Of a DNA stretch of 64,000 nucleotides, positions 23,683 to 26,308 are shown piece by piece. Where the stretch lies: contig CAYOFG010000004.1 in the NCBI GenBank assembly GCA_964403285.1, positions 17,292 to 81,291 on the forward strand, read 5' to 3'. Under the pieces are notes generated by a model. The model worked only from the letters and a program-made list of their open reading frames with translations. It was not told where the DNA came from and searched no databases. Position 1 is the stretch's first letter. Each line of letters starts with the position of its first letter. The translations under genes were made by a program, and so were the position numbers. This DNA is from an uncultured Clostridia bacterium. GTDB lineage: Bacteria > UBA6262 > WVXT01.

Positions 23683-24603
23683 ATGGCAGGAAGAATAATT
23701 GACGGTAAATCTCTGGCGGCGAAATTCAAAGAAGACATCAGGAAAGAAGTGGGAGAGTTGAAAGAGAAACATAAAGTGCAACCCCTGTTGGTAGCAATAC
23801 AGGTGGGAGAGAACCCTGCCTCAAGAGTCTATGTTAATAACCAGAGGAAAAGTTCTGAAGAGGTAGGAATAGATTATCAACTCCACGAATTACCGGAAGC
23901 AACCAGCGAGGAAGAACTTCTCCAATTCGTGGAGAAATTGAATAGAGACGATAAAGTTACTGGCATTATTCTGGAAATGCCCCTTCCGCAACAGATAGAT
24001 ACTCGCCGGGTGCAGAGGATGATTGCTCCCATGAAGGATGTTGAAGGGATGAGCCCTTCCAATATGGGTATGCTGGTCTATGGAAATCCCAGAATTGCTC
24101 CCTGCACGGCACTGGCGGCGATGGAGTTACTAAAAAGTACAGGCGTGGATATAAAGGGTAAAGAAGTAACCGTTGTGGGACATAGCGAGATTGTAGGAAA
24201 ACCAATAACTCTTTTTTTACTCTCTTCAATTTTGGAGTCGGCTACTCCCACTGTTTGCCATATTGCTACCAGGGATTTGGCTTCCCACACCAAGAATGCT
24301 GAAATCCTGATTGTCGCCGTGGGAAAGGCGGGATTAGTCAAGGGAGATATGATTAAACAGGGCGCAATTGTAATCGATGTGGGGATAAATCGAGTTCCTG
24401 TTCTCGATGAAAAGGGGAAACCCGTTGTTGATAGCGAAGGAAAACGCAAAATGAAGACAGTTGGCGATGTAGTGTTTGAAGAAGCAGTGGAGAAGGCTTC
24501 CTATATTACTCCCGTGCCCGGTGGAGTCGGTCCCCTTACGGTGGTCATGCTCTTAAGAAATACACTCACTGCTTGTAAATGGCAAAGGGAGAAAAAAGTA
24601 TGA
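23683..24603 (+). CDS. folD: Methylene-THF dehydrogenase FolD (probably monofunctional)
   Basis: PCTALA, IVGKP, VIDVGINR, ITPVPGGVGPLTV; Q54 and E98 replace the cyclohydrolase Lys and Gln. Confidence 0.93.
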   Translation: MAGRIIDGKSLAAKFKEDIRKEVGELKEKHKVQPLLVAIQVGENPASRVYVNNQRKSSEEVGIDYQLHELPEATSEEELLQFVEKLNRDDKVTGIILEMPLPQQIDTRRVQRMIAPMKDVEGMSPSNMGMLVYGNPRIAPCTALAAMELLKSTGVDIKGKEVTVVGHSEIVGKPITLFLLSSILESATPTVCHIATRDLASHTKNAEILIVAVGKAGLVKGDMIKQGAIVIDVGINRVPVLDEKGKPVVDSEGKRKMKTVGDVVFEEAVEKASYITPVPGGVGPLTVVMLLRNTLTACKWQREKKV

Positions 24604-25025
24604 GAATAGTTTCCAGAAAGATTCGTTTTTCCACTCAAGGGAATGTGGATATTATAAACCTTACAGAGCGGGTCGTAGGGAATTTGGAGGAGACTGGTCT
24701 GGGGAAGGGGGTCGTTAATATCTTTGTTGCCGGAGCTACCGCGGGCATAACCACTATGGAGTATGAGCCGGGATTGGTGGAAGATTTTCCCAATGTCATC
24801 GAGCGACTCGTTCCCCAGAAGAAAGGTTATCTCCACAATGAGACCCATCTTGACAGGAATGCTCATTCGCATCTGAGAGCAGCTCTTCTGGGACCTTCTC
24901 TCACGGTTCCCTTCGAAAATGGGGAGCTTATCCTGGGAACATGGCAACAGATTATCTTTGTCGATTTTGACAACCGACCTAGAAAGAGGGAAGTGATTCT
25001 ACAGATAATAGGGGAACAGGAATGA
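24600..25025 (+). CDS. yjbQ: YjbQ/UPF0047 family protein (ATGA overlap with folD)
   Basis: NAHSHLRAALLG and LILGTWQQIIFVDFD motifs. Confidence 0.9.
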   Translation: MRIVSRKIRFSTQGNVDIINLTERVVGNLEETGLGKGVVNIFVAGATAGITTMEYEPGLVEDFPNVIERLVPQKKGYLHNETHLDRNAHSHLRAALLGPSLTVPFENGELILGTWQQIIFVDFDNRPRKREVILQIIGEQE

Positions 25026-26308
25026 AACCTATACTTCAGGTAGCATTAGATTTTATTGATTTGCCCAGGGCATTAAAACTTGCCGGGGAAGCTCTGGAGG
25101 GGGGAGCCGATTGGATTGAAGCAGGGACGCCCCTTATCAAAAGTGCAGGACTCGATGCCGTGAGGGAATTGAGAAAGAAATTTCCCCGGGCCACGCTGGT
25201 GGCTGATATGAAGACAATGGATGTGGGTAGGATTGAAGTGGAGAGTGCTGCCAAGGCGGGAGCTGATGTGGTAGTTGTTCTCGGGCTCGCCTCTGACTCT
25301 ACCATAAGAGAATGTATTGAGGCAGGAAGACATTACGGAGCAAAGATAATGGTAGACCTGTTAGAAGTTGATGAACTCCTGGAAAGAGCAAGAGAAATTG
25401 AGAAGATGGGTGCCGATTATATCGGTCTTCATACCTCAGTTGATGAGCAGATGGAGGGAAAAGTATCTTTTCAAGGAGTGAGAACAATTGCCGGCAAGAC
25501 AGGAATTCCCGTTGCTGTTGCCGGAGGGGTCAATTCCGAAAACGCTCATAAGGCAGTAGAGGCAGGAGCAAATATTATTATTGTGGGGGGAGCGATTATC
25601 AAAAGCGTAGACGCCAAAAAAGCAACCGCAGAAATTAAGAAGGCAATAGAAAAAAAAGTTGAGATCAAAAGTGAACTTTTCAGGAGGGTTTCCGAGAAGG
25701 ATATCAGAGAGATGCTTTCCCAGGTTTCTTCACCAAATATCTCTGACGCTATGCATCGCCAGGGTGAACTGAAAGGCATTCGTCCAGTATGTTATGGGGT
25801 TAAGATGATTGGACCTGCATTCACAGTGAGAACCTATCCGGGAGACTGGGCAAAGACAGTGGAAGCAATCGATGAGGCTCCCCAGGAGAGCGTCATTGTG
25901 GTTGATGCAGGAGGGGTTGGACCAGCAGTATGGGGAGAGCTGGCTACTCACAGTTGTATACAAAAGAAAATAGCGGGAGTGGTAATTGACGGAGCGATCA
26001 GGGATGTGCCTGAAATCAGGGAGCTGAAGTTCCCTGCTTTTGCCCGAATTATTACACCCACAGCAGGGGAGCCTAAAGGACTTGGTGAAATGGGCGTGCC
26101 CGTGGAAGTTGGCGGAGTGAGGGTCTTTCCCGGAGATTGGGTTTTTGGAGATGATGACGGAGTTGTAGTCATCCCGCAAAAAAGAGCTGTAGAAATTACC
26201 AATCGGGCAATGGATGTATTGGAAAGGGAGAACAGGATACGAAAGGAGATTAAAGAAGGCGGGACTCTGGGAAAAATTACAGAACTTTTGAAATGGGAAA
26301 AGAAGTAA
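25022..26308 (+). CDS. 3-hexulose-6-phosphate synthase fused to an RraA/HMG-aldolase-like domain
   Basis: N-terminal LQVALD, EAGTPL, ADMKTMD; C-terminal NISDAM, WGEL, IDGAIRD, PGDWVFGDDDGVV. Confidence 0.85.
   Translation: MKPILQVALDFIDLPRALKLAGEALEGGADWIEAGTPLIKSAGLDAVRELRKKFPRATLVADMKTMDVGRIEVESAAKAGADVVVVLGLASDSTIRECIEAGRHYGAKIMVDLLEVDELLERAREIEKMGADYIGLHTSVDEQMEGKVSFQGVRTIAGKTGIPVAVAGGVNSENAHKAVEAGANIIIVGGAIIKSVDAKKATAEIKKAIEKKVEIKSELFRRVSEKDIREMLSQVSSPNISDAMHRQGELKGIRPVCYGVKMIGPAFTVRTYPGDWAKTVEAIDEAPQESVIVVDAGGVGPAVWGELATHSCIQKKIAGVVIDGAIRDVPEIRELKFPAFARIITPTAGEPKGLGEMGVPVEVGGVRVFPGDWVFGDDDGVVVIPQKRAVEITNRAMDVLERENRIRKEIKEGGTLGKITELLKWEKK

Follow-up and report, generated by a model that had tools for sequence, protein, structure and literature searches.

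The stretch of DNA analysed here (64,000 nt from an uncultured Clostridia bacterium, hereafter the window) carries on its plus strand a gene, hps-rraA, for a fusion of hexulose-6-phosphate synthase (HPS) with an RraA-like domain. The fusion gene is preceded by yjbQ, which encodes a protein of the YjbQ/UPF0047 family, and by two genes of tetrahydrofolate (THF) metabolism, folD and fchA. The panE gene, about 9 kb 5′ of hps-rraA, opens the long panE-fhs-...-acs string in which these genes lie. The features needed for the analysis are the following.

15075..16022, plus strand: panE, PanE/ApbA-type ketopantoate (2-dehydropantoate) reductase (PF02558, 141.8 bits; PF08546, 128.4 bits)
23031..23681, plus strand: fchA, methenyl-THF cyclohydrolase (PF04961, 222.6 bits)
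23683..24603, plus strand: folD, methylene-THF dehydrogenase/cyclohydrolase family (both domains, PF00763 and PF02882)
24600..24603, plus strand: ATGA overlap of folD and yjbQ (yjbQ ATG, 24600-24602; folD TGA, 24601-24603; context AAAAAAGTATGAGAATAG)
24600..25025, plus strand: yjbQ (yjbQ-H), 141 aa, YjbQ/UPF0047 (PF01894 and TIGR00149)
25022..25025, plus strand: ATGA overlap of yjbQ and hps-rraA (hps-rraA ATG, 25022-25024; yjbQ TGA, 25023-25025; context GGGGAACAGGAATGAAACC)
25022..26308, plus strand: hps-rraA fusion, 428 aa (NCBIfam NF005442 / PRK07028)
25022..25648, plus strand: HPS domain, OMPDC fold, aa 1-209 (TIGR03128)
25691..26305, plus strand: RraA-like class II aldolase/decarboxylase domain, aa 224-428 (PF03737)

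The two ATGA overlaps, at 24600-24603 and 25022-25025, had been read in the original prediction as translational coupling of folD, yjbQ and hps-rraA. Both are real, and both are kept in 4 of 4 relatives from the same family in which the region is intact (L040, L041, L043 and L046). A single ATGA overlap is commonplace in compact operons and genomes; since the overlaps are conserved together with the gene order, those seen here exceed chance. In other phyla yjbQ and hps-rraA are co-stranded and separated by 15-70 nt, with no overlap. The yjbQ start at 24600 was preferred to an in-frame ATG at 24579 because of the N-termini of more than 30 homologues and an AGGGAG Shine-Dalgarno sequence 9 nt 5′ of the chosen start.

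The fusion protein matched NF005442 at 596.4 bits (cut-off 593), with residues 2-428 on positions 3-429 of the 430-position profile. Its HPS half scored 217.9 bits against TIGR03128, the HxlA equivalog (cut-off 200), and, among structures, 200 bits against the Hps half of 9LJ9 and 133 bits against 3AJX. The HPS catalytic motifs noted in the original prediction hold at the level of single residues: E33, D62-x-K64, D67 and H137, the metal and acid-base residues of the OMPDC suprafamily, are the same in 3AJX and 9LJ9 by alignment, and all five (E33/D62/K64/D67/H137) are invariant in nine members of the fusion clade. The RraA-like half matched PF03737 at 163.9 bits. Residues R327-D328 of the fusion align with R123-D124 of the HMG/CHA aldolase 3NOJ, the catalytic Arg and a metal-ligand Asp, and are invariant within the fusion-clade alignment. 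The RraA equivalog NF006875, by comparison, was matched at only 74.6 bits (cut-off 136). Regulation of RNase E as the main role of the protein was therefore rejected, the aldolase residues being kept and the RraA cut-offs missed, and the 'ribonuclease regulator' in the name of NF005442 is an unlikely description, given the conservation of an Arg-Asp pair of the aldolase type. The Pfam scan gave no PF02548 (PanB) match to the fusion. Sequence comparison supports the prediction that the fusion is a formaldehyde-level carbon-carbon lyase/aldolase pair.

Fusion-like proteins at 27-31% identity (P0168, P0169, P0173, P0182 and P0217) form a divergent clade; they keep the D-x-K of HPS and have the aldolase R-D replaced by S/T-D or T-E, so that the catalytic Arg is lost. 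Judged from these replacements, the members of this clade probably have a different function or are inactive.

The comparison as a whole took in about 170 other genomes. At least 8000 proteins related to the fusion were present in a database clustered at 90% identity, and an exhaustive search of 50%-identity representatives returned 312 matches at E <= 1e-30; of the best 150 matches listed, about 14 were clusters of full-length fusions. At the best 80 loci in species-representative genomes, the bacterial hosts are Omnitrophota, Planctomycetota (anammox lineages among them), Desulfobacterota, Actinomycetota (Thermoleophilia and Geothermincolia), Aerophobetes, Ratteibacteria, Elusimicrobia, Armatimonadota and Poribacteria; archaeal hosts are Nitrososphaerota, Hecatellales, one Asgard archaeon, Thermoplasmata and Methanobacteriota.

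The distribution of two pantothenate enzymes among these genomes was determined with the profiles PF02548 (PanB) and PF02569 (PanC). In the first 50 fusion-bearing genomes PanC was found in 43 and PanB was absent from 45; in the next 30, searched for PanB only, it was absent from 25. Overall, PanB was thus absent from 70 of 80 fusion-bearing genomes, which span at least 10 phyla. The 29 genomes without the fusion gave the opposite picture, with PanC in 26 and PanB in every one of those 26, and among 14 model genomes PanC was present in nine, all nine with PanB. When PanC-positive genomes are compared, PanB is present in 5 and absent from 38 with the fusion, versus 26 and 0 without it (Fisher p = 2e-14, uncorrected for phylogeny). 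The seven PanC-less genomes among the first 50 are three archaea, which have PPS instead, and four metagenome-assembled genomes (MAGs) of 0.9-1.9 Mb. Incomplete assembly cannot explain the pattern for PanB, since PanC was found in the same assemblies.

Several Actinomycetota with the gene order panG-panC-yjbQ-hpsRraA have split or partial PanB matches only (G065 C12:15763-16201; G076 C6:39832-40336; G100 C16:295693-296469; G120 C116 and C156). From their sequences, these split matches may represent decaying panB genes, which would fit an ongoing replacement.

Neighbouring genes were analysed in species-representative genomes, where more than 587 relatives of the fusion were found; the counts that follow refer to the best 80 loci (L048-L127), onto which reference proteins were placed by tblastn, with pantothenate/coenzyme A (CoA) contexts confirmed by Pfam. 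A YjbQ gene lies directly upstream of the fusion at 21 of the 80 loci and nearby at one more. At 16 loci (14 upstream, 2 downstream) the fusion is adjoined by a SIS protein resembling 6-phospho-3-hexuloisomerase (PHI), whose best NCBIfam match is HxlB, and at none of the 80 do PHI and YjbQ both stand beside it. Genes for pantothenate or CoA synthesis occur within 6 kb of the fusion at 24 loci and genes of one-carbon (C1) metabolism or the Wood-Ljungdahl pathway (WLP) at 11, so that the linkage to pantothenate and CoA is the stronger of the two. The C1 contexts include acsD-acsE-yjbQ-hpsRraA at five Omnitrophota-type loci, hpsRraA-PHI-fchA-folD in a Pirellulales MAG, hpsRraA-folD and hpsRraA-panE-acsE. 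Among the pantothenate contexts, a Hecatellales archaeon has PPS(PF02006)-hpsRraA-panE-coaBC and an Asgard archaeon PPS-hpsRraA-panE followed by a pyridoxal phosphate-dependent decarboxylase, which we take to be of the archaeal beta-alanine-forming type. A PanE-type gene lies directly 3′ of hps-rraA at six foreign loci (Hecatellales, Asgard and four more lineages), and hpsRraA-panE pairs are also present in Nitrososphaerota, Poribacteria and a deltaproteobacterium. The genes (Rossmann+DUF2520)-panC-yjbQ-hpsRraA are co-stranded in Thermoleophilia and other Actinomycetota, or panC is convergent just 3′. DUF2520 oxidoreductases are PanG-type ketopantoate reductases (PMC4572677, citing Miller et al. 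2013; PMC11626117).

Some of these loci showed further regularities. A QueD-type 6-carboxytetrahydropterin synthase (TIGR03367, 103.6 bits; cut-off 89.25) is encoded directly upstream of the fusion at 11 of the 80 loci (L049, L077, L079, L084, L086, L091, L099, L101, L103, L104 and L124), mostly in anammox and other Planctomycetota, with one Aerophobetes MAG and one unclassified MAG; at 8 of the 11, mcsA-mcsB-clpC then follow, and the genomes checked carry PHI elsewhere. At the Omnitrophota-type loci L051-L054 and L062, acsD-acsE-yjbQ-hpsRraA is followed on its 3′ side by a gene for a Pta N-terminal (BioD-like)+DRTGG protein without the phosphotransacetylase domain. The spacer between yjbQ and hps at two Omnitrophota-type loci, L053 (~4022-4075) and L051 (~2130-2190), contains a long, near-perfect, GC-rich inverted repeat, with arms such as GAGGCTGGACCTCGGC...GCCGAGGTCCAGCCTC.

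The YjbQ protein of the window scored 110.8 bits against TIGR00149 (cut-off 67.75) and 121.5 bits against PF01894. It is one of three YjbQ paralogues in the source genome, yet it shares 45-55% identity with the YjbQs that adjoin the fusion in Omnitrophota and Actinomycetota and only 31-36% with its own two paralogues. A maximum-likelihood tree separated its group from the two paralogues with support of 97/93; the inner clades of that group follow phylum, and its backbone is unresolved. By these sequence comparisons the window YjbQ is a member of a distinct subfamily, here called YjbQ-H. Nearly all members have G-[AS]-T for the canonical H-T-T and T-[ILV]-E for I-N-E; the window protein and 46 of 46 other aligned members have a small residue followed by [AST]-T, and T-x-E or N-E, while the other two paralogues of the source genome keep H-T-T or H-I-T. 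An AlphaFold2 model of YjbQ-H (pLDDT 95.5) superposed on the YjbQ structures 1VE0 and 1VPH with TM scores of 0.90-0.93. A T-fold shared with QueD/PTPS was considered for YjbQ and rejected, as a Foldseek search returned YjbQ structures only. The family is without an established physiological function (PMC3010111).

New in this analysis is the observation that the YjbQ neighbour of the fusion belongs to a subfamily of its own that is fusion-adjacent only in PHI-less genomes. PHI is absent from 22 of 22 foreign genomes with YjbQ-H beside or near the fusion, and likewise from all 12 genomes of the source phylum, and YjbQ stood beside the fusion in 0 of 30 PHI-positive genomes tested (Fisher p = 8e-10, uncorrected for phylogeny). 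The number of YjbQ copies had no clean relation to PHI status, with 1-5 YjbQ genes in each of 60 of the 62 genomes; the signal is visible only at the level of the subfamily and by adjacency. Because YjbQ-H adjoins the fusion only where PHI is lacking, and PHI itself adjoins it at 16 other loci, YjbQ-H is a candidate substitute for PHI. That it is the missing 6-phospho-3-hexuloisomerase of PHI-less organisms, by non-orthologous replacement, is suggested by this pattern and is advanced only tentatively. In a PHI-bearing anammox genome (G079, Scalinduaceae; L131 5029-6014), a gene that from its sequence we presume to be rpiB (ribose-5-phosphate isomerase B) lies directly 3′ of a YjbQ-H orthologue; this neighbour would be a second independent link of YjbQ-H to pentose-phosphate metabolism.

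The source genome (1.94 Mb in 124 contigs, 91% complete) encodes a single HPS. The original prediction had noted no phi/hxlB in the window, and this extends further: TIGR03127 found no PHI in the window or in the genome, where the best match (57 bits) was a 320-aa SIS+CBS protein identified as KdsD, whose gene adjoins kdsA and kdsC, nor was any found in the 11 other species genomes of the phylum. Fae (PF08714) was found nowhere in the source genome, and Pfam scans of the window genes gave no Fae match. A transketolase and three transaldolase-family genes, for which a search had originally been proposed, are encoded. Since they are present, a reverse ribulose monophosphate (RuMP) pathway is not needed for pentose phosphates, and as the sole source of pentose it was rejected.

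The 12 species genomes of the phylum in the collection fall into three families, f1 (which includes the source genome), f2 and f3. The fusion is full or split in 9 of the 12, is represented by end fragments at contig edges in 2 and is missing from 1. In f1 the gene order is fchA-folD-yjbQ-hpsRraA-MetE-like-pabB-pabC-cooC-cooS, and in f3 it is ...fhs-metF-fchA-folD-yjbQ, at which point the contig ends; f2 has fchA-folD-hpsRraA without yjbQ between, the yjbQ orthologue lying 3′ of acsE. Linkage to WLP genes, on which the original prediction had staked itself, is hence conserved in all three families as well as at the 11 foreign loci given above. Families f2 and f3 have PanC and the fusion and lack PanB. 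The source genome has an intact PanB (G000 C79:4935-5795), solitary at the end of a 5.9-kb contig. Its panC (G000 C28:9690-11112) stands in a small cofactor cluster of its own, 3′ of dap genes; reading the translated open reading frames by eye, we take its neighbours to be folK (HPPK) before and nadA-nadB after.

In the window, hps-rraA is followed by three genes before the cooC-cooS region.

26346-27410, plus strand: MetE-like gene, 354 aa (no Pfam match; weak match to methionine synthase PRK00957)
27415-28866, plus strand: pabB, downstream of hps-rraA in the WLP island
28868-29869, plus strand: pabC, downstream of hps-rraA in the WLP island

The whole plus-strand string runs glyA ... panE-fhs-metV-lpdA-lipB-lipA-metF-fchA-folD-yjbQ-hpsRraA and continues after hpsRraA as (MetE-like)-pabB-pabC-cooC-cooS-cooF-FNOR-acsB-acsC-RACo-cooC-acsD-acsE. 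Judging by its gene content, this string of about 30 kb is a Wood-Ljungdahl/THF island with added cofactor-supply genes, namely lipA/B (lipoate), pabB/C (p-aminobenzoate/folate) and panE (pantoate). All family relatives keep the MetE-like gene after hps-rraA, and Endomicrobia and Elusimicrobia MAGs have a homologue two genes 3′ of the fusion (L093 and L105; about 2.1 kb past the start of the fusion), so the pairing recurs beyond the source phylum.

In the PanB reaction the Mg-stabilised enolate of 2-oxoisovalerate accepts a formaldehyde-level unit from methylene-THF, and HPS reversibly splits hexulose-6-phosphate into ribulose-5-phosphate (Ru5P) and formaldehyde. Taken together, the PanB/PanC pattern, the pantothenate/CoA contexts, the presence of panE in the string and the intact residues in both halves make it fairly probable that the fusion is a ketopantoate (2-dehydropantoate) synthase which does the work of PanB independently of folate, with YjbQ-H as an accessory. 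From gene context and conserved residues we infer each catalytic step, what the aldolase half accepts as substrate and what YjbQ-H does. The HPS half would split D-arabino-3-hexulose-6-phosphate into ribulose-5-phosphate and formaldehyde, and the RraA-like half, as a divalent-metal class II aldolase, would join the formaldehyde to the enolate of 2-oxoisovalerate, a sugar phosphate thereby serving as formaldehyde carrier in place of methylene-THF. The ketopantoate would be reduced to pantoate by PanE and would lead to CoA, the acceptor of the acetyl-CoA synthase that is encoded in the same island. Where PHI adjoins the fusion, at 16 loci, it could feed the reaction by converting fructose-6-phosphate (F6P) to hexulose-6-phosphate, for a predicted net conversion of F6P + 2-oxoisovalerate to Ru5P + ketopantoate, followed by PanE or PanG. 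In PHI-less hosts YjbQ-H would most probably supply hexulose-6-phosphate from fructose-6-phosphate, or else deliver a formaldehyde equivalent in another way. The covalent fusion would channel toxic formaldehyde, as proposed by analogy with the archaeal Fae-Hps fusion.

Several findings weigh against this assignment. The nearest neighbours of the module in the window are folD and fchA rather than pan genes, with panE 9 kb upstream, and the fusion fills no gap in the source genome, because an intact PanB is also encoded there, as it is in 7 of 8 family relatives (f1). Elsewhere, 10 of the 80 fusion-bearing genomes have a PanB match, although several of these are split or partial, and all presence/absence counts come from phylogenetically non-independent genomes. 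HMG/CHA-type aldolases use pyruvate, and 2-oxoisovalerate is branched. The nine YjbQ structures that were the only hits of the fold search gave no hint of isomerase chemistry. Non-adjacent YjbQ-H members occur in 13 of 27 PHI-bearing genomes, in Desulfobacterota beside phoH-pgpH, and in 5 of 29 fusion-less genomes; as members occur in PHI-bearing genomes and the tree follows phyla, the idea that the subfamily is confined to PHI-less genomes was rejected. In the literature, with subscription journals outside the coverage, nothing was found that links pantoate with hexulose or RraA; the same coverage yielded nothing on Hps-RraA or on a physiological function of YjbQ. In the source genome the module may operate in parallel with PanB or only under certain conditions, or it may be an ancestral route beside a later-acquired PanB. 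Its location amid folD, fchA and acs genes fits an island that bundles a pathway with genes for its cofactors, pabBC, lipAB and panE together with the module.

The original prediction accounted for the same genes by a shuttle that carries formaldehyde between RuMP chemistry and the folate pool, in which Hps in reverse would feed methylene-THF and the WLP, or formaldehyde derived from methylene-THF would enter sugar phosphate, with YjbQ or the RraA-like domain speeding the condensation as Fae does for tetrahydromethanopterin (H4MPT). What survives of it is the formaldehyde-level chemistry, the absence of PHI and the recurrent C1 link; the proposed purpose, feeding formaldehyde into THF or scavenging it, does not, the pantothenate/CoA linkage and the absence of PanB being the stronger signal. 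A shuttle agrees with the fchA-folD-(yjbQ)-hpsRraA order kept in the phylum, with yjbQ near acsE in f2 and with the C1/WLP genes at foreign loci from several phyla, of which hpsRraA-PHI-fchA-folD is an example, and the PanB of the source genome would leave the fusion free for another role. Since the spontaneous reaction by which formaldehyde condenses with THF is slow in vivo (PMC7073904), a catalyst would also be sensible. However, neither YjbQ nor RraA resembles Fae in sequence or fold, and nothing was found that speaks specifically for a Fae-like formaldehyde/methylene-THF activity of YjbQ. Without PHI in the genome or the phylum hexulose-6-phosphate has no known source or sink, so that a RuMP flux lacks entry and exit, and the transketolase and three transaldolase-family genes make its reverse operation superfluous. 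As a shuttle would, in addition, leave the aldolase half, the pantothenate/CoA operons and the absence of PanB elsewhere unexplained, and as pantothenate/CoA contexts (24 loci) exceed C1 contexts (11 loci), we regard it as unlikely.

Ketopantoate synthesis might instead be combined with the folate pool if, in WLP hosts, the formaldehyde came from methylene-THF, YjbQ-H were a methylene-THF/formaldehyde lyase and the HPS half only buffered formaldehyde as hexulose-6-phosphate. Such a combination would cover the linkage of yjbQ-hpsRraA both to pantothenate/CoA genes and to folD/acsE, and would account for the occurrence of YjbQ-H in just those genomes that lack PHI and, with it, a donor derived from sugar. 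It is nonetheless improbable, given that YjbQ has no known folate-binding feature, that the panG-panC-yjbQ-hpsRraA operons of Actinomycetota contain no folate genes, and that the HPS catalytic residues are fully conserved, as they perhaps need not be in a mere buffer. We give very little credence to the view that the fusion traps stray formaldehyde or is an incidental passenger, its operon position being meaningless and YjbQ an unrelated housekeeping protein. ATGA overlaps are indeed common in compact genomes, and HPS is in wide use for formaldehyde detoxification (PMC8065059), but formaldehyde trapped as hexulose-6-phosphate could go no further in the absence of PHI, a yjbQ of a dedicated subfamily is paired with hpsRraA in three phyla, and neither the anticorrelation with PanB nor the pantothenate/CoA contexts would be expected.

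To our knowledge no enzyme other than PanB is established for the first committed step towards pantoate (vitamin B5/CoA); of the anaerobes and archaea with the fusion that were examined, most lack it yet retain the remaining pathway. If the fusion is a folate-independent ketopantoate synthase fed by sugar phosphate, this gap would be closed. Thousands of genes now called 'HPS/ribonuclease regulator', 'OMP decarboxylase' or 'HPS/PHI' would have their annotation corrected, and RuMP genes in metagenomic reconstructions, usually taken as formaldehyde assimilation or detoxification, would be read differently. In the source organism, the Wood-Ljungdahl island appears to carry genes for its own cofactors, folate, lipoate and CoA. 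Should YjbQ-H prove to be an isomerase, it would have the first physiological function of a UPF0047/YjbQ protein, and with Hps-RraA would form a three-step folate-independent route from F6P + 2-oxoisovalerate to Ru5P + ketopantoate that stands in for PanB in many anaerobic bacteria and archaea. The result opens a cheap and concrete assay for a family whose structure has been solved nine times and whose function has never been found.

Among known systems, the closest in architecture and length is NF005442/PRK07028 itself, 'bifunctional hexulose-6-phosphate synthase/ribonuclease regulator', with hundreds of bacterial and archaeal members, whose family name is an annotation assembled from the two halves. 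PanB (EC 2.1.2.11) has the same proposed net chemistry, the addition of a C1 unit to a metal-stabilised 2-oxoisovalerate enolate to give 2-dehydropantoate, and shares operon partners with the fusion (panC, panE/panG, PPS and coaBC). In most genomes each excludes the other, although the source genome has both, and they have no kinship in sequence or fold, so that the fusion is a candidate functional analogue that would draw its C1 unit from hexulose-6-phosphate or free formaldehyde instead of methylene-THF. In the archaeal Fae-Hps fusion, reportedly described by Goenrich et al. in 2005 from Methanosarcina and relatives, HPS is likewise joined to a formaldehyde-consuming domain, channelling toxic formaldehyde; there the partner, Fae, condenses formaldehyde with H4MPT, whereas the source genome has an RraA-like partner, no Fae, and THF as carrier. 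The HPS half is about 60% identical over 200 residues, as read off the alignment, to that of the Thermococcales Hps-Phi fusion (9LJ9), and PHI adjoins the hps-rraA fusion at the 16 foreign loci; in contrast to Hps-Phi and HxlA-HxlB, the window has a YjbQ-subfamily gene in the position of PHI. About 190 residues of the C-terminal half align with the HMG/CHA aldolase/oxaloacetate decarboxylase 3NOJ, and Arg123 and Asp124 are kept; this is distant kin (76 bits), and the window domain differs in being fused to HPS. The YjbQ protein, finally, belongs by sequence and predicted fold to the YjbQ/UPF0047 family (TIGR00149, 'secondary thiamine-phosphate synthase'; 1VE0 and 1VPH), but the His and Asn of HTT...INE that are kept in typical YjbQ proteins are lost in YjbQ-H, the subfamily that is tied to hps-rraA in PHI-less genomes.

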